DNA of 62,000 nt, taken from NCBI GenBank assembly GCA_038087875.1, contig CM075988.1, positions 6,324,001 to 6,386,000 of the forward strand, read 5' to 3'. Position 1 is the stretch's first letter; the number at the start of each line of letters is the position of its first letter. The position numbers were made by a program, and so were the translations under genes. The notes beneath the pieces are model-generated. The model made no database searches. It saw nothing but the letters and a program-made list of their open reading frames with translations, and was not told the DNA's origin. This document shows positions 28,806 through 60,940 of the stretch, piece by piece. The stretch comes from Malacoraja senta (Eukaryota).

Positions 28806-29139
28806 AGACTAATAACTCTTCTCAACTACTACAGTAGTTAGAGTTATACAAAGTATTTGATACATTACTAGTTATCATTAACTCAATGACAACCAGCTTG
28901 TTTCTTCTGAAGGTTCTTCATCTCTAGGCTTTTGTTCTCAAACTGACATATAACCTGACCCCCACTTAGACTTCTTGTAGTAGACACTGTTTTTTGATTT
29001 TTTTTCCCCTGCTGTCCCTTCTGAAATAACAAATTTCTCTTGACTTACCCTCTCCTGGTTTGTCTCCAAGTCCTTTCATTCTACCAGGAACGTTTTCACT
29101 TTTATCTTGTTGCACTTTGCCTGCATTTTATTGGACTGA

Positions 29140-29411
29140 CTTTAGTCAGTACATCCAACCATGATATCACTTGAAGATCTTTGGAACAATACAGTTGGCT
29201 CTTAACGCATCCGAGTCGATCTGTGTTGATTCATGCTATTCAGCTAATCAGTGAACAATGGGACTCCATGTAAACACTGACCTCTACTCCAGAACTCCCC
29301 GTTCATCTCCCTCCATCAGTACTTCCAGTACTGGACTCAAATGAAATTACTTCACTGCATCGTCCTCGAACGAACCTTGTGCTTTTTATTTTATTTGTGG
29401 GTTTTGTAAAT
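29140..29411. repeat. Segment duplicated in inverted orientation at 60532-60802
   Basis: Manual alignment gives 2 substitutions and 1 single-base indel over about 272 bp. Confidence 0.95.
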
Positions 29412-36372: not shown

Positions 36373-36377
36373 ATTGT

Positions 36378-36890
36378 AGATACATAGATGCATAGAAAAT
36401 AGGTGCAGGAGTAGGCCATTCGGCCCTTCGAGCCTGCACCGCCATTCAATATGATCATGGCTGATCATCCAACTCAGTATCCCGTACCGGCCTTCTCTCT
36501 ATACCCCCTGATCCCCTTAGCCACAAGGGCCACATCTAACTCCCTCTTAAATATAGCCAATGAACTGGCCTCAACTACCCTCTGTGGCAGAGAGTTCCAG
36601 AGATTCACCACTCTCTGGGTGAAAACTTTTTTCCTCATCTCGGTCTTAAAGGATTTCCCCCTTATCCTTAAGCTGTGACCCCTTGTCCTGGACTTCCCCA
36701 ACATCGGGAACAATCTTCCTGCATCTAGCCTGTCCAACCCCATAAGAATTTTGTACGTTTCTATAAGATCCCCTCTCAATCTCCTAAATTCTAGCGAGTA
36801 TAAGCCAAGTCTATCTAGTCTTTCTTCATATGAAAGTCCTGACATCCCAGGAATCAGTCTGGTGAACCTTCTCTGCACTCCCTCTATGGC
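36378..36890 (-). mobile_element. Young CR1 LINE 3' fragment
   Basis: [49 protein letters not shown]...; nearly identical to 60015-60515. Confidence 0.92.
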
Positions 36891-37521
36891 TAGATGGTGG
36901 ACGTTAGAACACCATGATCCTGATTCTCCAACCCATGGTTCTGTCCTTAGAGACTCAAGTCCTAGAGGGGTGAGTGAATGAATCTGGCCCAATGTCCAGT
37001 GGTTTCCTTTCAAATAACTTCAGAGCTCAAGAGAAACCTTCAGACATTTGGTTATTGTTCCTCAGTGACGTGAGGCCCAAAATCAGACACGAACGTGCAT
37101 CCATGCTGCCAACATCAAATTTCACTCCTGTTCTTTGTAATTCTCATCGTCATATGCCAAAGCGATTAAGGTCCAGGGAAAATGGCCAACTTGAATTATA
37201 TATTCCTTATTTAGGTCTAAAATAGTCAAGTTTCAGCCAAACTAGACATCATTTGAGCACATCAGGCATTGGTTAAAAAGCTGCAATCAGTGAAGCTTTT
37301 CAACTTTTAATGTGACTTGTACTGATGCCATAAAAATCCATTTGAAAGGAACAGGAAATACGGTGCAGGTCTAAGCAGGGAGGTTTTTTTCATCAAAAAA
37401 TGCTTAAAAAATTGCAATTAAAAGGCCAGAAAATTTTCCTGCTGAGCCTGAAACCTGGTGGTAATTTGAAGCGGGCTACCGACCAAACGCAATCACGGGT
37501 AACTCGTACAGGAGGCTCGGG

Positions 37522-40858: not shown

Positions 40859-41950
40859 TTTGGCTTTGTGGCTAAATGCTTAAGGTTTACTGAACAACAG
40901 AGTATGGAGTTTCTGGGAAAGAGAAAAGGATCAAAGAGGTAGTAAAAGAGGAGAGGTGAAAAAGGGGAAGTGAGAAGGGCGATGAAATGAAAGGATGGAT
41001 TAAAAATAGAGGAGAGAATAAAGGAGAAGGAGGGAAAAGGAGAAGTCCAAAGAGAATGAAGGGTTTGAGTAGTATAGATGTCAGGGGCTATGGGGAAAAG
41101 GGAGAATGCGGTTGAGGGAAAGATAGATCAGCCATGATTGAATGGTGGAGTCGACGCGATGGGCCGAATGGCCTAATTCTGCTCTTAGAACATGTAGAGG
41201 AAGGAACAAAAGGAATGAAAGGAGTAAAGGGAGAGGCAAGAGGAAAAGTAGAGAGAGGGATAAAATTGAAGAGAAGAGATAAAAACCAGGGTGAAGAGGG
41301 GCCTGTTGCTGCAGGGCTCTGGTGATGATGTTGGTGCATGCGACTGTTTGCCGGCTACTCGCAGCACTGCCATGGAAGAGGCTGCTTCCTCCAGGCCAGC
41401 AACGGCTGGTGTGATTTACTGCTCCAGCACCTGGCTTCCTCTCGCCTGGGGGACTCGAGCCGTAAAACAAACAGATTGGATTCTTCTGACGGAATGTTCA
41501 GCCGCTGGTGTCACCTTTCCCTTCAAACCATCCCACTGCGAGACAGGCAGAGGGTCGGAATCCACGGATTAAAATCCCCCCCTCCCTTCCTCACACATTT
41601 TTTCAAATAAGCACCGCTGCGCACACATGGAATAACTGCAGTATTTTCTCCCGTATTTTTACACCAGGAGAGATACTGACTGATGCATCGAGCTGTTTCT
41701 CAGAAGAATCAAATGTCACCTCTGGCGTGGAATCAGTCGAGAGATGCAGCTGTGCGGCGAGGTTCGCACATCTGTCCTGGCATGGTGGAGATTTATCTTG
41801 TGATGATCATCATCCCAGCACCTCCTAAAAAGCAACACAGATTCAACTTGAGGGATATCATCACATGCACTGGCAGCTGGGATAGGTTTAGAACATAAAC
41901 ATATCACACATGGTGAGCATGGGAACAGGCTCACCAGCCACAATATCCAC

Positions 41951-42076
41951 GGCAAACGTGATGCCAAGCTAAATCAGTCCCCTCTGCCTGCGTTATCTCA
42001 AGATTCAAGAGATTTTATTGTCATGTGTCCCTGATAGGACAATGAAATTCTTGCTTTGCTTCAGCACAACAGAATA
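41951..42076 (+). repeat. 126-bp direct repeat, copy 1
   Basis: Identical to 46025-46150. Confidence 0.97.
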
Positions 42077-42599
42077 GTAAGATTAAACGAGAACTTACCT
42101 AAATTTGAAGTTTGATCTTTATTTTATGAGGAGTTACGTAGGTGATTACGTGAAGAACCCCGCCAGTGCGCCTGCGCGTCAATCTTCAAAGCAGCGGTGT
42201 GAAATCACAAAAAACAACAACCGAAGTAATATAGTCTCATATTAAAACGAGTAATACAAGAACTTCCATCTGACCTTTATGATAGAGGGTAGGGTCGTGG
42301 CGGGCACGTAATCACCTACGTAACTCCTCATAAAATAAAAATCAAACTTCAAACTTAGGTAAGTTCTCGTTTAATCTTACTATTTTACTTCGGAGTCACG
42401 TGAGTGACTACGTGAAGATTTTAAAGCTTTGTGATTTCATGCCGTAGATCAATCCCGGCTTCTCACTGCATAGATTGACTCGGAACGAGAATAATCAATC
42501 ATGCATTCATAATAACATTTGTACCACAAATGCAGTAATTCATTTCAATAATGAAATTAATCAGATCCCCTTTAAACCAAAGGAATTTACACAGAACTT

Positions 42600-43510
42600 A
42601 AAATAGTTTCTGCAAACAATCCCGCATTAACAATAGGCCGATGGTAAAAATGTTGAAACATCAACTCATTGGACCACCTGGCGGCTGCGAGGATATGGTC
42701 GACGGGGACGTCTTTTGCCCTGGCCGCCGACGTTTCTGCTGCCCTAGTCGAGTGAGACGTAAAAACATAAGTGTTAATACCAGCAGCTGTTAAGACTTCT
42801 TTTATCCATCTGGAAATAGTCTGTATTGAAACTCTCTTGTGTGGTTTCCTTGCATGTGATCAACAACCCAGTTTCCGTATTTCTCAAATTCTTTGTGACC
42901 TCAATGTATTGTAACAAATATGTCTTAATACAGAGACAAGGATCATTTGGATATACTGCTAATTTTAAATCCTGTCACACCTGGCCTAATTTGCTTTAGT
43001 AGGTCATAGATATAGAATGTAACCTTATCTTCAGTTACTTCCATACTGTCTATTTGTAATTTTCCAAGTGTTTGCACTCGTTGTGCTGTCACTCATGCCA
43101 TAAGCATTAATACTTTCATACTGAGCTTGGCCAAAGGTAAAGACACACTTGATGACCATTCACGAAGTAGTTTCAGTACCACACTTACATCCCAGATTGT
43201 CATGTATCTAGGTTTCCGTGGTTTGAAATTAAAGATTCCTTTCATTAGTCTGGAAACAATTGGGTGTGACCCAATTGGGTTTCTTTCTGAATCCAGAACC
43301 AAATATGAGGACAATGCACTTCTGGCTGAATTAATTGCACTACAACTCAGACCTTCATCATAATAAAGTTTTGACAGAAATTCTAAACACTTGAAATATC
43401 TGCAGTACTTTTTTGCACATTATTTTGTACACAGAACTCTTCCCATTTCTTAATATAAGAAAGGTACTGTTTTTGAGTGCTCTTCCTCCAGGCTGCCATA
43501 AGCATGTCCA
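42600..43510 (-). pseudogene. DIRS tyrosine recombinase (disrupted)
   Basis: IGSHPIVSRLMKGIFNFKP...WDVSVVL; TAQRVQTL; FTSHSTRAAETSAA (HSTR at 42743-42754); W and FY catalytic region; stops and frameshifts present. Confidence 0.85.
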
Positions 43511-43549
43511 CAGTACTCTCAGGCAGTCCTCGTCCCAGAAAAGGCATTC

Positions 43550-43945
43550 TTAAAACCTGCAAATCAACAAATCCAAACGATCATATAATGGATGTTGTTC
43601 CCCTGTTAAAGGGTGCAGCAATAAATTACTCTTTTTTGGGACTTTCATTAACATTTGTGTTGTTAATTCTAATATCAACGGATACCATGGCTGTGTAGGC
43701 CAATCTGGTACTACCAATACCCTTGAAGCAGCATCTTGCCTGATTTTAAGCAAACATTGGCTTATGAGGCAGAAAGGTGGAAATATATATGAAAACATAC
43801 CACCCCAATGTAGCGAGAAAGCATCAATCGCCACTGCTCCTTGATCTGGTTTCCATGAGACATATCTCGATAGCTGATGATTCAAGTCGATGTCGGGCAT
43901 TCCAAATCTGATTACTATATCATTGAATACCTCTTGATTCAACAT
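43550..43945 (-). pseudogene. DIRS methyltransferase-like (MT) domain
   Basis: PDIDL...YVSWKPDQGAVAIDAFSLHW...YIFPPFCLI...VVPDWPTQPWYP. Confidence 0.8.
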
Positions 43946-43959
43946 TCATTCTTTATTAT

Positions 43960-45310
43960 CATGGAACATTCGTGACCTGGTGTCTGCTATCGTGTTCATT
44001 CTACCTGGTAGATAGATAGCTGAAATCCAAATGTTCTTTTCAATACACCAAGACCAAAGTTGATTTAACCATTTTGTCACATGACACCGACTTAATTCCA
44101 CCCATATCATTAATATAGGCAACTGCTGTTGTGTTTATTAATTTGAACTTGAACCTTCCTTTTTGTTGTGTTAGAACCATAAGCTTGGAGTCCATAGAAA
44201 CCTCCTAAAAGCTCCAAATAGGTAATTCCCCATGTCTGCAGTAACAATAACTCTTCCTGATTCCATCTGCCTCCGCAGCTAGATGTTAAGTCAGTTACAT
44301 CCCATCCTAGTGCACTGGCATCAGTTTGTAATATCATGGAAGGTTGTTCAATCAGCACTTTGCCTGAACTGCTTGAGACATGTAGAATCCACCACTGCAG
44401 ATTAGAAACAGCATTTGTTGTTACTTGCATGGTTCTATCAAAATGACCAGCATTTACTCTCAGTGCCTGTTCTTTGATTCTCTGCAGCTGTTGATAATGT
44501 AATGGTCCATACTGGACTGTAATTTTCCCAGTACTCGAGCCACCTGTCTGATTAGAGGTTTTTGCTCGTTTAACAGATTACTGCAATCTTTAATCAACTC
44601 CACCCTTTTTTCACTGGGCAAAGTAATTTGCATTTGGGCTGAATCAATTGTGAACCCCAAATAATCAATCGAGGTACATGTTTTTAACCTTGATTTCTTT
44701 GGATGAATTTAGAAACCCCCAAACTTTCAAAAGTTTGATTTCATAACTGCAAGCAACCGATGCTTCTGTTGACTGTTTTGTCCTTCCTATAATCAGGACA
44801 TCATCCAGGTATGCCATTAGTACATGCCCCTGGCTCTCAGCAACCCCAGAATTGATTTTAACAATTTTATGAATATTCTGGGAGCGAACGTTAACCCATT
44901 AGGCAGAGCTTTGAACTGCCCTAATTGGTTCATCCATGTAAATTTAAGATACTTCATATCTTGCAAGTGAACAGACACTGAACAAAAGGATTCAGACTTG
45001 TCAAGTCTATAATAATCCTACATCCTCCATCCTTTTTTGATCGAGGGAATATATTTGACCCAAATTGGTGAATTTGGTAGACTGATTCTTCAATAACACC
45101 TTTTATATATAGGGTTTTGAAGCGCAGCTTGAACCTCCATTACTTCGCAAAGTGGAGAGTTCTGCTAGGAACATGCTGGACAGGCAAATCATAATTTGGA
45201 TTGAATTCAATTCGAAATCCTTGTATATTATTCAGAATTACCACATCTGAAGTAATCTTCTTCCAATGTTTATAGAAGAGACGTAATCTGCCTCCAACTT
45301 TTGGACTTAA
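43960..45310 (-). pseudogene. DIRS reverse transcriptase / RNase H (frameshifted)
   Basis: VGGRLRLFYKHWKKITSD; FKALPNGLTFAPRIF; AYLDDVLI (44800-44811); QTDASALGW; ITYLEL. Confidence 0.88.
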
Positions 45311-45399
45311 TCCAGTTAGTATGTTCCCATGAGAACCAGGTCCACCTACCTCTTGAGTCATTTGAGTATTCTGAGATCCCTGGATTCTCCCGGAAGCAC

Positions 45400-46024
45400 C
45401 ACCACTGGTTCTTACTCCCGCTGCAGGCCGCCAGCTATGTCCCTGTGTTGATGAGCGACTTGGTCCTGGTCTAGGATCCGTATGACGTCTGAAAGGATAC
45501 TTCCTCTTTACAGACTTTGCAACCATTGATGTTTTTATCAATCCTGTTTTCGCTTCATCTTCCAACTCTTTAAAACGTCTCCCGAGATCCTCTCCAAAGA
45601 GTAAGTTGGGTAATTGTATATTACTTGGTTTGCAGAGTGCTGCGAATTTCGGATTCATAGTAGGCCGTATAGCACCATCCTCAGATAATTGATCTCGAAG
45701 TGGGTGCTGCATAGCAACCCCAGTGCTTCCTGATGCAACTTCGTCATCTCTTGGCTGTTATCTGCTATTCTGGTAAAAGCAGTTATTCCAGAACCCAGCA
45801 GCTTTAATATTCTCTGCAACTGATTCCAGATAATTTGGTTCACTGCTGCTGCTTTCAGCAACCTACAATTACTTGGGGTCTCCTGCTTTCTTGCAGTCTC
45901 ATCCATCTCCTGCTGTTCCAGCTGATGGTAAACCAAGTAATTTATTAAGGAGGCCAGTTCTTCTCCTAATGGCTCTCCTGACCCTGACGGGGCAGCGAAT
46001 CCTACTGCCAGGGGTGGAACATCT
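45400..46024 (-). pseudogene. DIRS gag-like ORF C-terminal part
   Basis: PSNC...INYLR...IRPTMNPKFAALC...LLFGEDL, located upstream of RT. Confidence 0.65.
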
Positions 46025-46150
46025 GGCAAACGTGATGCCAAGCTAAATCAGTCCCCTCTGCCTGCGTTATCTCAAGATTCAAGAGATTTTATTGTCATGT
46101 GTCCCTGATAGGACAATGAAATTCTTGCTTTGCTTCAGCACAACAGAATA
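46025..46150 (+). repeat. 126-bp direct repeat, copy 2
   Basis: Identical to 41951-42076. Confidence 0.97.
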
Positions 46151-46512
46151 TAGTAGGCATGACTACAAAACAGATCAGTGTGTCCATATAACATTATATA
46201 AATATATACACATGGATAAATAAACTGATAAAGTGCAGGTAACAGATAATGGGCTATTAATGTTCAGAGTTTTGTCCGAGCCAAGTTTAATAGCCTGGGG
46301 AAGTAGCTATTCCTGAACCTGGTCGTTGCAGTCTTCAGGCTCCTGTACCTTCTACCTGAAGGTAGCAGGGAGTAGAGTGTGTGGCCAGGATGGTGTGGGT
46401 CCTTGATGATACTGCCAGCCTTTTTGAGGCAGCGACTGCGATAGATCCCCTCGATGGAAGGGAGGTCAGAGCCGATGATGGATTGGGCAGTGTTTACTAC
46501 TTTTTGTAGTCT
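46072..46512 (-). mobile_element. Rex1/Babar LINE 3' fragment
   Basis: LQKVVNTAQSIIGSDLPSIEGIYRSRCLKKAGSIIKDPHHPGHTLYSLLPSGRRYRSL plus UTR. Confidence 0.88.
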
Positions 46513-46519
46513 TTTATAG

Positions 46520-47597: not shown

Positions 47598-48052
47598 CCA
47601 GAGGTGGTGAATCTATGGAATTCTTTGCCTCATACAGCTGTGCAGGCCAAATCATTGGGATTTTTAAGGCGGAGATTGACAGATTCTAGATTAGTACGAG
47701 TGTCAGGGGCTATGGGCAGAAGGCAGGAGAATGGGGTTGAGAGGGAAAGATAGATCAGTCATGATTGAATGGCGGAGTAGACTTGATGGGCCGAATGGCC
47801 TAAAGGGCCTGTCCCACTTTCACGACCTAATTCATGACCTCTGCCGAGTTTGCCCTTGACTCATACTCGCAGCATGGTCATCACAAGGTCGTAGGAAGTC
47901 GTAGGTAGGTCGTAGCAGGCCCTGATGCTAGTCGTAAATACTCGTGGCATCAAGTAGGTCGGGGCGTTTTTTCTAGCCTGATGAAAAATGTCCATGAGTA
48001 AAAAAGGTTGTGAATTATGTCGTGATAGTGGGACAGGCCCTTTACTCTGCTC
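47598..48052 (+). mobile_element. CR1 3' end interrupted by a MITE
   Basis: GTGGTGAATCTATGGAATTC...GGGCCGAATGGCCTA, then the MITE, then CTCTGCTC. Confidence 0.75.
47804..48041. mobile_element. PIF/Harbinger-like MITE
   Basis: TIR AGGGCCTGTCCCACT...AGTGGGACAGGCCCT flanked by TAA / TTA; shares GAAAAATGTCCATGAG with the 33.5-kb MITE. Confidence 0.7.
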
Positions 48053-48139
48053 AGTGGATTTATGAAACTTGCTCTCTGTGTATTTTCTACTGTATGTGCA
48101 GTAATGCAGCGGTTATTGATCTGTGCTTGGATCAGAAGT

Positions 48140-51100
48140 TATTTTATTTCGTAGTCACGTGAGAGACTACGTGAAGAACCCCGTACAGCCGCTCGTGTGT
48201 CATTACGTCAGACGCATTGGTGCAGGCAGCCGGTTGGAGCAGCAGAGCTCCTCCAGCGTGGTAAGTTTAAACTTCAGGTAAACAGGTAAGAAATACACAG
48301 AGAGCAAGTTTCATAAATCCACTGGAGGGGAAATTCAGTAATAATGTGGCTCCCAGACGAAGGGGTCCCCAGGATAGGGGTTAAACAGACCAGAACGGTC
48401 AGCCCTGGTGCTGGGAGGGTTTCCCTCCGGTAAGGCATATAGACGCTGGGATTCCTGGGGAGGGGAAATTCAGCAGCAATGAGGTACCCAGACCACAGTG
48501 GTCCCCAGGATATGGGGTAAATGGACCAAAATGGTCAGCCCTGGTGCCGGGAGGGTTCCCTTCCGGTAATAAGAAAATTTGGAGGTTGGCCAGGAGGGAG
48601 CTCCATCTAGATACACTCCAACAGCAGGAGTTGGGTCAGCGCGGGCCTATGGGAGAGCCCGCGCCAGCAGCGCCTTGGACAGGGCTGCTTTATGGGGATG
48701 CCGAGTCTATGGCAGTGCCGGCCTATGGGAGAGACCGCACCAGCAGCGGCTTGTAACAGGGCTGCTTAATGTCTCCCTTATGGAGGAGGACAGCATGTCG
48801 GGTCAGTGTAAATCTGACGCCGAGTCTGAGGGTTTAGCCGTGGAGCATACCACAAGGGATGAAGGGCACGTGTCAGAGGTACCATTCCTGGCAGCAAGGT
48901 TGCCATCCCAACACAATGCAGTGAACACCGCTATCAGAGGCGTTAGAGCCAGCTGCCGAATCTTCTATTCAGGTAAGACCTATTCAACAGGCAAAACCTG
49001 GAGGACGAAGCACAAGCTGTTGGACCAATTAAGGCCAACGACAAGCAAGGCTTCATAGTTTCGGTGACAACGCTCCTCACGTCTTCATGGGCAGTAAGCG
49101 GTTCACTGAAGCTGGAGGCAGCATGAAAGTTGGCCAGAGGGTCCTCGCACTCTACCAGTTCTACTCTACAACTAAGGTACCACTTACAAGTTGTTAAGAT
49201 TTACACTTGGTTGTACAATACACAAATGATTAAGACATTGTCATCTACTCAGAGGCATTTAAACATGTAAAACTGGACATTACTAGCATTCCAAGCAGGT
49301 TGGAATTGGGCCAGAATTGTGTTGAGGCAGGCTCAGTATTTTAGCCAGGATTGCCTTCAAGACAGGCTCGGAAATATGACAAGAATTGTCTTTTGAGTCA
49401 GGCTCAGAATTATGGCCAGAGTGTTTGGGACAGGTTAGAATTATTGGACAGGCTGAGTATTGTGGCCAGGTTTGTCTTGCAAGACAGGCTCAGGAATCGG
49501 GCCAGAGTTGCTATTCAGGGCAGATATGAAATGATGGCAGGAGAGGCCCGTTCATAATGAAAGATGGCTGATTAACAACTGATTTCATAGGGTGTTCCCA
49601 TTTACAGTGATCATCGGAGATATTTGGAGGCATTGCTATGATGAGGCAATATAACAGTATGATGACAATAAATCATTCAAAGAGGACTACTTAGAGTTCA
49701 AAAGCACTTGTTATGTTTTGGCTGGATGATATTTTAATGCTGTATTTTGCTAAAATCCACTGTTTCAGTCTCAAACTATATTTGAGAAATTGGGCTCCTC
49801 TATCCAGTTAAAATAAAGTTGTTATCAAATGGACTAGTTGGTCATTGGGGTTTGCCTTTGGCTATTAGTTGGCCTGTAAATCTGCCCCGGGCAACAGATT
49901 GGAGTCAATAGAAACCTGGAACAGCCTTGTTGTTCTAAGCAGCTTTCTATTCATTAGACTAATTGGCAATGTAATAGATGTGATGCAGCTGTGCAAGTGG
50001 GAGAACTGACAGCATGCTTAATGGCAAACTATTAAGGGCCATGAAGGTCATTGATAACACACCTTTGCTATTACCAGCTGAAGCTACTAAAGTCACTATG
50101 ATGGACAAACAGTATTCAGCATTGCTCCAGTCGTTGATCAATAAATATGTCATTATATTGCAAAATGATGCTAATGGCCTAAGGTGGGAAATTGCGAATG
50201 TCATCTCTAGTTGGAGGTGAAGGAGATTTGCGTGAGTTATTAACTCTGCAGTTATTGTTATCAACTATCTATAGACCCTACGTGTATTTTATGGGTTAAA
50301 GAGTGATTGAGCGAATATGCATATCTGCATGCTCAACTTCATGTTGATACACTATGATGGTGGCATATGATAGTCACGTGGGTGCAATCAAGTAAAAGAA
50401 TCCTGTAATAGGTACATAATCTAATTTGCCACTGGAGTATCATCAAGTACAGATCAATGACAACACAGAATGGGTGTTGGACCACACCGTATTTATGAAA
50501 TTCTGATTCAATGCAACACTGAATATAGATATGTTGTTTTCATGCTAATTCACAGGTTGCAAAAATGTGTGGCATAACAGTGGCGAAAGATACATTCTCG
50601 CTACAAGCAGGAGGAATAGTTTTTTATGTCTTCCTCCATTTTGCTTCATGAGTTGGGTCTTCAAATAAAGTCATCAAGAGCCCGCTTTAGGTTCCAGCTG
50701 TGGGATTGGCCTATGCAGTTTGATTCCCGATTTGTCGGGAATAATAATAATGCAACCTTATATGGTTATTTTAAACGTAACTTGCTGGTTCAGCCTGTGG
50801 CTCGGGAAATCAGCCGTTGCATGATAAAATCAATTTATGTTCTACAGATTCTCAATAGACTGCCTACAGCTTGGGTTGTCACCCCTATTCTTGTATGTAT
50901 TCAGAGTGCTGGGATAGTACCAAAAAGCAGTATTTTGCTTCTTCAGGAGATGGGAAGCGTTTGTTTAATGCTCATGTTACATTTAAAATGGTACAGATTT
51001 TGGAGCTCTTGGAGTTCATTTTTAATGATCTTTGACAATATTGAGTTATAGGGTCATTAACGGTGCCAAGGTGCTTTCCATCCGATTTGCTGCAGCAAAC

Positions 51101-52297
51101 GGGATCCACTTTGTTGAGTTCACCCCGGATATCGAGTTAGTAAAGGATATCCTTAACACAAGTTTCCCAGGGCAAGTACAATGCAGTATGGGATGTTGAC
51201 ATTGTGTTAACACTATTTTCACCAGGGGGTTTCTAGCTACATTCTTAGCTTTGGCAGATCTCATTAGGTAGTTATCCTCCTGGCGCTGGTTTAGCGCAAC
51301 AGGTCAGTCGCTACATAATTGCGACGGGACAGGATGATTACATCTGTAAATAATATGTATAGTATTTTATCTTTATAATTTACTTAAGCAGAGCAGAAGT
51401 GGTGTCAGGTCTCAAAATAGGTCATGGCATATCCAGGGACCTTTAGTTATGTGAGGGCTCACATATACAACAATATGTCAAGGTCACCAAGAGCCTTCGA
51501 GGCTCTTAGCTAGCTATGATTGTTAGTTACAAAAAACTTTATAAGAACATATCAGTTCAGACCATTTCCAGGTGATAAAACGGAGTTGAGTTATGCAGGA
51601 GTAGATACTGATTCCAGATCTCACTCTACCAGGGCTGCTACAACAGCAGCAGCAACGGTTAATTATGTCTCGCTGGACCACATCTTAACGGCTGAAGCAT
51701 GGTCAAAAGAACGAATTTCCAAACATTTTATAATAACCCGTTGCCAGATCAGGGTATTTCTCAATCATATTTTACGTTCTGTTTATAGGTTCCATCAGGA
51801 TGAGAGATGGGACTATTATGATTACTTCATTTAACAGCATCAGCATGTTTTAAATCTATGTCATGACTGTATGCATTATGAATGTTTTCCCTCATTTGTC
51901 AATGAAGCAGTTGTGGTTGTGTAGACTTGTTTCTCGCGGCATGAAATCACAGAGCTTTGAAATCTTCACGTAGTCACTCACGTGACTCCGAAGTAAAATA
52001 GTAAGATTAAACGAGAACTTACCAGTTTGAAGTTTGATCTTTATTTTATGAGGAGTTACGATGAGGGACTACGTGCCCTCCCCTCCCAACCCTCATAAAT
52101 ATCATCTGGTAGTTCTAGTCTTCTCTCGTCTTACTATTATACTTCAGTCACTATTATCTGTGATTTCACACCGCTGCTTTGAAGATTGACGCACGTGCGG
52201 CTGTACGGGGTTCTTCACGTAGCCCCTCATCGTAACTCCTCATAAAATAAAGATCAAACTTCAAACTGGTAAGTTCTCGTTTAATCTTACTATTTTA
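48140..52297 (+). mobile_element. Full-length DIRS1-type element with decayed ORFs
   Basis: Left ITR 48167-48203 pairs with right ITR 52187-52222; ICR 51964-52075 is complementary to both termini; relic WLDDIL near 49720, QNDANGLRW (RNase H) and HSTRAA at 51622-51633. Confidence 0.9.
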
Positions 52298-52479
52298 TAT
52301 CCCTTCTGAAATATACAACAGTTCCCTCTCCCCCAGGCAACGGAGCGGTGGTGCTGCCATTCCATTCAAAGCAAGAGTCTGCACAACCTGCGCTGATGTG
52401 GTGTGTAACATTTAACGACTGGATCACTTGCAGCTGCCTTATCACCCTACGCTGCTGCCGTGTCGGAGCCTGATGATGG

Positions 52480-59159: not shown

Positions 59160-60531
59160 CCTAGAGTCAGTTATTAAAGATGGGATAGCAGCACATTTGG
59201 AAAGTGGTGAAATCATTGGACGAAGTCAGCATGGATTTACGAAAGGTAAATCGTGTCTGACGAATCTTATAGAATTTTTCGAGGATGTAACTAGTAGAGT
59301 GGATAGGGGAGAACCAGTGGATGTGTTGTATCTGGACTTTCAGAAGGCTTTCGACAAGGTACCACATAAGAGATTAGTATACAAACTTAAAGCACACGGT
59401 ATTGGGGGTTCAGTATTGATGTGGATAGAGAACTGGCAGGCAAACAGGAAGCAAAGAGTAGGAGTAAATGGGTCCTTTTCACTATGGCAGGCAGTGACTA
59501 GTGGGGTACCGCAAGGCTCAGTGCTGGGACCCCAGCTATTTACAATTTATATTAATGAGCTGGATGAGGGAATTGAAGGCAACATCTCCAAGTTTGCGGA
59601 TGACACTAAGCTGCGGGGCAGTGTTAGCTGTGAGGAGGATGCTAGGAGACTGCAAGGTGACTTGGATAGGCTGGGTGCGTGGGCAAATGTTTGGCAGATG
59701 CAGTATAATGTGGATAAATGTGAGGTTATCCACTTTGGTGGCAAAAACAGGAAAGCAGACTATTATCTAAATGGTGGCCGATTAGGAAATGGGGAGATGC
59801 AGCGAGACCTGGGTGTCATGGTACACCTGTCATTGAAAGTAGGCATGCAGGTGCAGCAGGCAGTGAAGAAAGCGAATGGTATGTTAGCTTTCATAGCAAA
59901 AGGATTTGAGTATAGGAGCAGGGAGGTTCTACTGTAGTTGTACAGGGTCTTGGTGAGACCACACCTGGAGTATTGCGTACAGTTTTGGTCTCCAAATCTG
60001 AGGAAGGACATTATAGCCATAGAGGGAGTGCAGAGAAGGTTCACCAGACTGATTCCTGGGATGTCAGGACTTTCATATGAAGAAAGACTGGATAGACTTG
60101 GCTTATACTCGCTAGAATTTAGGAGATTGAGAGGGATCTTATAGAAACGTACAAAATTTTTATGGGGTTGGACAGGCTAGATGCAGGAAGATTGTTCCCG
60201 ATGTTGGGGAAGTCCAGGACAAGGGGTCACAGCTTAAGGATAAGGGGGAAATCCTTTAAGACCGAGATGAGGAAAAACTTTTTCACACAAAGAGTGGTGA
60301 ATCTCTGGAACTCTCTGCCACAGAGGGTAGTTGAGGCCAGTTCATTGGCTATATTTAAGAGGGAGTTAGATGTGGCCCTTGTGGCTAAGGGGATCAGGGG
60401 GTATGGAGAGAAGGCAGGTACGGGATACTGAGTTGGATGATCAGCCATGATCATATTGAATGGCGGTGCAGGCTCGAAGGGCCGAATGGCCTACTCCTGC
60501 ACCTATTTTCTATGGATATTTCTATGTATGT
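59160..60531 (+). mobile_element. Young CR1 LINE, 5'-truncated (RT domain to tail)
   Basis: QHGFTKGKSCLTNL...YLDFQKAFDKV...GVPQGSVLGP...FADDTKL; one stop at 59935-59937 and one frameshift near 60130. Confidence 0.95.
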
Positions 60532-60802
60532 ATTTACAAAACCCACAAATAAAATAAAAAGCACAAGGTTCGTTCGAGGACGATGCAGTGAAGTAATTTC
60601 ATTTGAGTCCAGTACAGGAAGTACTGATGGAGGAGATGAACGGGGAGTTCTGGAGTAGAGGTCAGTGTTTACATGGGGTCCCATTGTTCACTGATTAGCT
60701 GAATAGCATGAATCAACACAGATCGACTCGGATGCGTTAAGAGCCAACTGTATTGTTCCAAAGATCTTCAAGTGATATCATGGTTGGATGTACTGACTAA
60801 AG
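60532..60802. repeat. Inverted copy of 29140-29411
   Basis: About 99% identical reverse complement. Confidence 0.95.
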
Positions 60803-60940
60803 ATCAGGGGGTATGGAGAGAAGGCAGGTACGGGATACTGAGTTGGATGATCAGCCATGATCATATTGAATGGCGGTGCAGGCTCAAAGGGCCGAATGGC
60901 CTACTCCTGCACCTACTTTCTATGTATCTATGTATCTATG
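60802..60940 (+). mobile_element. Second copy of the CR1 3' terminus
   Basis: Matches 60392-60513 with 2 substitutions and has its own (TATCTATG)n tail. Confidence 0.92.

Follow-up and report, generated by a model that had tools for sequence, protein, structure and literature searches.

A truncated DIRS1-like retrotransposon between two exact 126-bp copies of its target in Malacoraja senta, tentatively read as a one-ended integration finished by host repair

DIRS1-like elements, as described in PMC3266345, typically carry YLDD- and HSTR-type motifs, mostly need or share only a 3-nt core with the target, and have a right extension that is expected to match the element's own internal complementary region (ICR) fully. 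For DIRS-1, PMC7192593 reports an mRNA without almost the whole right terminal repeat, ends that are rebuilt on the ICR before circle formation, proteins that act in trans, and cDNA that was mostly linear and single-stranded, with a circle junction that could not be amplified and a recombinase specificity that was then untested. DIRS integration is largely a model, and failed insertions are natural records of that step. In the literature searched (most subscription journals lay outside its scope), no title or opening abstract dealt with truncated DIRS copies with long duplications.

The window, by which we mean the whole 62,000-nt stretch of Malacoraja senta DNA analysed here, contains no N bases and holds a minus-strand DIRS1-like element of 3,956 nt bracketed by two duplicate copies, followed by a second DIRS. 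Read evidence came from the contigs of four runs out of 24 listed: X20 and X21, from the same species, and X22 and X24, which hold no unique flank and are uninformative at this site. The features considered below are these.

41164..41950, no strand: low-copy host flank, continuous with duplication copy 1 (one contig covers 41164-42027 in each of X20 and X21)
41951..42076, no strand: duplication copy 1, made up of low-copy host DNA (about 46 nt) followed by LINE tail (about 80 nt)
42073..42076, minus strand: 4-nt core that the DIRS right end has in common with the target (element-strand TATT), the first 4 letters of the 7-nt circle-junction core TATTTTA
42073..42152, minus strand: right terminus, comprising the right extension (42073-42119) and the outer right ITR, complementary to the ICR over 78/80 nt
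42305..42418, minus strand: ICR, holding the right-end/left-end circle junction; its left-end half predicts the missing left terminus
42587..43547 (approximate), minus strand: remnant of the tyrosine recombinase ORF with stops, frameshifts and an HSTR motif (PF00589 E 0.066, below cut-off; phrog_216 integrase E 0.021)
43553..45400 (approximate), minus strand: broken pol remnant, RT-RNase H-methyltransferase-like, with a YLDD motif (RVT_1 E 9e-05, below cut-off)
45400..46028, minus strand: gag, C-terminal half, lacking some 185 residues as well as the 5' UTR and left ITR
46025..46028, plus strand: 4-nt microhomology GGCA between family gag and the start of the duplicate (13 X21 contigs)
46025..46150, no strand: duplication copy 2, which runs on into the LINE body
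46071..46515, minus strand: 5'-truncated Rex1-like LINE fragment whose 3' UTR is the insertion target; family contigs from X20, X21 and X22 diverge from the window behind 46515
48140-52298, plus strand: second DIRS, full-length (4,159 nt) with both ends, diverged; an in-window example of normal insertion

The gag, pol and tyrosine-recombinase frames of the truncated copy are all broken, and it is because of this that the RVT_1 and PF00589 matches stay below the curated cut-offs. The hallmarks of DIRS1-like elements are nevertheless present: RT/RNase H and tyrosine recombinase (YR) ORFs with retained YLDD and HSTR motifs (YL/IDD and HSTR in the class definition), together with an ICR complementary to both termini, a right extension and a short circle junction. 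ITRs at both ends, which also belong to the class, are not found, as the left ITR is absent. The copy is therefore a truncated derivative of a DIRS1-like family, not an intact member. The last pol segment, a putative counterpart of the methyltransferase domain expected after the RNase H, has no Pfam or PHROGs match. It matches 19 metagenome loci (41-55% identity), and the same loci also align to pol or YR parts. None of the 19 shows a long exact flanking repeat pair, a count of low power since the loci are 1.1-6.3 kb long and mostly fragments; direct repeats of at least 40 nt occur in 1/19 (77-80% identity, tandem). For gag, a full HMMER search gave 127 relatives, the closest named one being an uncharacterised little-skate protein (46% identity), while a word-index protein search with the gag piece gave nothing among 947 candidates. 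No Pfam family was found on the five intact fragments, nor any above cut-off in the gag region of nine homologues. At about 45820, gag has an 11-residue in-frame gap relative to homologues, and the family contigs have the same gap. A gap private to this copy was considered and rejected, as the family contigs cross the site without gaps relative to the window, making it a family trait. The runs X22 and X24 carry the labels of two other organisms; their contigs are mostly 95-100% identical to the truncated copy and do not cover its unique flank; on these contigs, the DIRS family is either common to several species or highly conserved.

The two duplicates are identical at 126/126 nt (41951-42076 and 46025-46150; blastn E 6e-60), in agreement with the exact 126-bp duplication claimed in an earlier note on this DNA, and they are the sole 100%-identical pair among the seven listed by a self-search of the window with minima of 50 nt and 95% identity. 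Copy 1 is joined to the low-copy flank by a contig covering 41164-42027 (X20: depth 24.3, 3 differences; X21: depth 2.2, 0 differences), so that the flank haplotypes of X20 and the window differ at 3/864 nt (0.35%). On the other side, a family contig (46093-46199, 11 differences) bridges 46150/46151. That contig and those leaving the window at 46515 indicate that copy 2 continues into a short, 5'-truncated LINE, which was already present before the DIRS insertion. The earlier observation that both copies hold the LINE tail and only copy 2 is followed by the LINE body thus holds, as does the empty-site order of flank, target and LINE body, which the X20 and X21 flank contigs and the bridging family contig support. 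The name Rex1 is a tentative assignment from motifs; a profile search gave no Pfam match for this LINE, and the Atlas provided a weak lead (PF09004 at 0.89, 22% of members). Its tail holds two tandem units. We also considered whether the end of the duplicate was gag itself, which was ruled out as the duplicate continues into low-copy flank. No host gene scored above cut-off in a profile search of 41/152 ORFs of at least 85 aa (31-58.7 kb).

The right end of the truncated copy is precise. The element ends after TATT, and the same four letters start the target; the joint through AATA that had been noticed before corresponds to this core, AATA at 42073-42076 being the element-strand TATT that opens the ICR-defined circle-junction core. 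Both positions at which ICR and right terminus mismatch (42103 and 42117) fall in the right extension, whose boundary at 42119 was inferred from the second DIRS in the window. The left-end half of the ICR matches the left end of the DIRS at 48140 over 35/38 nt. As the right extension is complete up to the core, on the DIRS-1 model the element went through its normal cycle before it was truncated, which argues against a simply unfinished cDNA and against insertion of a LINE-primed RNA. The latter route, in which a DIRS transcript is inserted in trans by target-primed reverse transcription, would produce 5' truncation and a long target site duplication, and the geometry and 5' microhomology seen here do resemble those of LINE insertions. 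Long LINE duplications also exist (R9, 126 bp; Dualen, median 900 bp; cited in PMC9977147). However, such an insertion should end at the 3' end of an RNA, with poly(A) or a LINE tail, and the right joint has neither, the LINE tail that is present being that of the target; moreover, the right extension, which according to PMC7192593 is absent from DIRS-1 mRNA, is complete here and ends at the circle-junction core. We consider this route highly improbable. Separately, the empty target matches the circle junction over six letters (TACTAT; 46138-46161, minus strand) in a register shifted by 2 nt relative to the joint. The right joint may have formed in the TACTAT register and then lost 2 nt, or may have used the TATT register.

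The second DIRS shows the canonical pattern that the truncated copy lacks, with the short core repeated and no target site duplication: it has the full 7-nt core on both sides and no long duplication. Its ORFs are far more decayed than those of the truncated copy, yet its ICR matches its right end at 81/82 positions. The ICR regions of the two copies are 98% alike, whereas their interiors barely align. Decayed ORFs beside near-perfect termini suggest that the cis ends are strongly conserved and that mobilisation occurs in trans. Other elements lie nearby. An inverted copy of 5'-region sequence of the second DIRS (48052-48093 versus 48282-48324; 34 nt exact, about 42 nt in total) sits roughly 50-90 nt outside its left end and looks like a templated-insertion scar, with copying possible in either direction; both DIRS copies in the window carry a copied segment at their left side. 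Directly preceding the left flank of the second DIRS is a 244-nt MITE-like element (47801-48044) with 40-nt terminal inverted repeats (90%) and TAA/TTA bounds, presumably of PIF/Harbinger type. Three young copies of a LINE 3' part, which we take to be CR1-like, are found at 29136-29411, 36377-36892 and 60014-60938 (96-99% identical, in opposite orientations).

At its left end, the truncated copy breaks off within gag. In 58 alignments to M-initial homologues of 380-530 aa, the first retained gag residue lies at a median of 185 (range 58-248), and roughly 1 kb of the element is probably missing. Twelve homologue alignments run beyond 46029, most of them by 6-42 nt and one as far as 46185; we read this as BLAST end-extension. 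The left terminus predicted from the ICR was not found beyond 46024 in the element's orientation when both strands of the whole window were searched with up to 7 mismatches per 31 nt; the four matches fell on the ICR and right ITR of this element itself and on the second DIRS (left end and ICR). A mid-gag break without the left ITR, as reported in the earlier note, is thus what the homologues and the terminus search both return. We rejected the idea that the missing 5' part sits at another place in the window, as only 3/223 alignments start outside the element (one overhang and two YR matches to the neighbouring DIRS). An addition to what had been noticed before is the microhomology at this joint. 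Thirteen X21 family contigs follow the window as far as 46028 and diverge beyond it (agreement 0.9), so GGCA, the first four letters of the duplicate, is native gag sequence as well. Both joints therefore share 4 nt with the target (AATA/TATT on the right, GGCA on the left); the chance of a microhomology of at least 4 nt is about 0.016-0.021.

We tentatively favour a reading in which the right joint is the work of the tyrosine recombinase, and host repair, at or near the time of insertion, copied 122 nt of the empty target a second time. A DIRS1-like tyrosine recombinase, assumed from what is known of the family, would join the right end to the target at the TATT core, and the left joint would fail or be lost during or right after integration. 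The free end would be trimmed about 1 kb back into gag and would pair through GGCA (4 nt) with the strand of an empty target or a sister chromatid, 122 nt away. A host polymerase would then re-copy the target from GGCA, giving the order flank, target, truncated element, target, flank. What the window contains is this order of parts and the microhomology; the timing and the enzymes are our reconstruction. The locus has the features of a one-ended integration, namely one precise end and another that is truncated with a short homology and a duplication of host DNA, and contigs show both duplicates continuous with their native flanks. A reason for the failed left joint could lie in the core. Heterology in the overlap stalls tyrosine recombinases, and the target matches only 4/7 core letters (the neighbour at 48140-52298 matches 7/7 on both sides), so that the second exchange could stall. 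Stalling does not follow from a 4-nt match, given that a 3-nt core is enough for most DIRS and that some tyrosine transposases tolerate heterology (PMC6900584). Against the favoured reading, DIRS elements presumably enter their targets as circles through a reciprocal exchange, which leaves no free end by default; there is a single locus, its age signals lean later, and the flank contig is unbranched.

A broader form of the same idea starts from other tyrosine recombinases. The integron integrase and the CTX phage system use single-stranded substrates, exchange one strand pair and leave completion to replication or the host. If DIRS recombinases likewise regularly exchanged one strand pair, with replication or host repair completing the reaction, every insertion would have an empty sister chromatid at hand, and copies with a precise right end, a left-hand break at a microhomology and a long target duplication would be a recurring, polar by-product. 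We consider this generalisation unlikely.

The favoured reading also depends on the gag joint being real. Neither joint 46024/46025 nor joint 42076/42077 is spanned by a record among those listed for the contigs of the four runs, and neither the 46024/46025 joint nor an empty-site joint is present among the listed 15 of 419 contig joints. The 864-nt flank contig passes through 41951 without a branch in both same-species runs (X20 and X21), with no difference from the window in X21. This unbroken contig counts weakly against one-ended integration, because contigs drop rare variants, X20 represents another haplotype and X21 has a depth of 2.2. Taken with the perfect identity of the copies and the lack of a bridging record among those listed, it fits an artefact in which the assembly or library joined an empty haplotype to a filled one, a concern raised in the earlier note. 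Against an artefact, contig simplification prunes short links between high-copy repeats and unique DNA, and rare variants are omitted. In addition, the joint contains no gap and no N and falls in a 4-nt microhomology inside gag, in contrast to the long overlaps at which haplotypes would be expected to switch. We therefore judge a haplotype merge quite unlikely, and less likely than had been feared, with the missing bridge among the listed records still in its favour.

If the joint is real, the duplication may also be younger than the insertion. In the next most plausible account, itself somewhat unlikely, a full-length insertion suffered a break in its left part in a heterozygote, and the broken end invaded the empty homologue, copied 122 nt beyond the insertion point, aborted and was end-joined at GGCA, either by aborted synthesis-dependent strand annealing (SDSA) with polymerase-theta end joining or, as a variant, by an unequal exchange, at microhomology, of the empty with the filled allele. 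The sequence and microhomology predicted are the same, and end joining after aborted SDSA needs polymerase theta in Drosophila (PMC2895639). The absence of a branch at the duplicate in X20 and X21 would fit a rare allele. The ages bear on this account as well. At 21 or more positions in the element, another letter makes up 90% or more of the family depth in X20 and in X21 alike, which sets a floor of 0.5% divergence (from 34 difference rows inside the element, among the 40 listed of 250 rows), and seven X22 contigs differ from it at 47/2,800 nt (1.7%) plus 7 gap letters. Were the duplicates as old as a divergence of 0.5-1.7%, 0/126 differences would be expected with P 0.28-0.015; the extension/ICR pair has 2 differences in about 49 nt (Fisher p 0.077 versus 0/126). 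The lack of duplicate differences and the extension/ICR mismatches lean weakly to duplication after insertion. Since DIRS proteins act in trans, however, the variants of this copy can be inherited from a decayed donor, and for the same reason, and given the decayed ORFs and 81/82 ICR match of the neighbour, damaged ORFs do not date the insertion. The argument for a recent duplication that the earlier note had drawn from a perfect repeat beside damaged ORFs is thus weak on both counts.

Repair from an empty homologue further requires that the empty allele still segregated and that a non-homologous flap of about 1 kb was removed. With flank haplotypes only 0.35% apart, an empty homologue was probably available only while the insertion was young, so that the repair could postdate the insertion by no more than a little and the gap between the clocks would barely be explained. 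Only one route allows a duplicate much younger than the insertion, as hinted by 0/126: a late double template switch within a filled allele, from the left core to the right core, along 122 nt of copied target and back into gag at GGCA, with no empty allele involved. Its first step might follow an abortive excision by the recombinase, and clean tyrosine-recombinase excisions are described for Cryptons (PMC9977147). Two switches are required, of which the first must fall exactly on the 4-nt core, and the clock signal that it would explain is weak; we consider it very unlikely. Of the three routes named in the earlier note, one-ended integration and repair from an empty allele both fit the anatomy and GGCA, and our data do not separate them; the LINE-like route is disfavoured by the intact right extension.

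Structures of this kind are known from retroviruses, and for DIRS a single locus with a joint unconfirmed by reads is a modest finding. Were it the only case, it would be an ordinary repair scar such as those known near retroviruses. Should it turn up repeatedly in the family, with one and the same polarity, the mechanism would be constrained and DIRS elements would be shown to be capable of causing local duplications; common and polar in a high-copy family, it would bear on the largely modelled DIRS integration step.

The copy resembles the DIRS1-like YR retrotransposons of PMC3266345 and PMC7192593 in its gag/pol/YR order, YLDD and HSTR motifs, ICR, right extension and ATT-containing circle junction; unlike them, it has no left terminus, a mid-gag break and a 126-bp duplication, the family being described in these sources without target site duplications. 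R9 and Dualen LINEs (cited in PMC9977147) share the long duplication, 126 bp for R9 as well, but theirs are made by LINE endonucleases and R9 is specific to rDNA according to that source; we regard the equal length as coincidence. Aborted SDSA followed by polymerase-theta end joining, as reported in PMC2895639, likewise combines templated copying with subsequent end joining, and was shown at Drosophila P-element excision breaks, whereas here it would be inferred. The HERV-K HML-2 provirus at 6p25.2 (PMC5488345) is also truncated and has a 111-bp near-perfect duplication, and there too an origin at insertion could not be separated from a later one, as PMC5488345 describes it; that element differs in being an LTR retrovirus with a PCR-validated empty allele. 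Finally, one-ended integration of HIV-1 and ASLV, as described in PMC5041404, pairs a precise, enzyme-made end with another that is often truncated and joined at a short homology, along with a long duplication from host repair. Those reactions use a linear substrate and a DDE integrase, whereas at this locus the enzyme would be a tyrosine recombinase acting on a presumed circle, with the half-reaction deduced from the structure it left behind.
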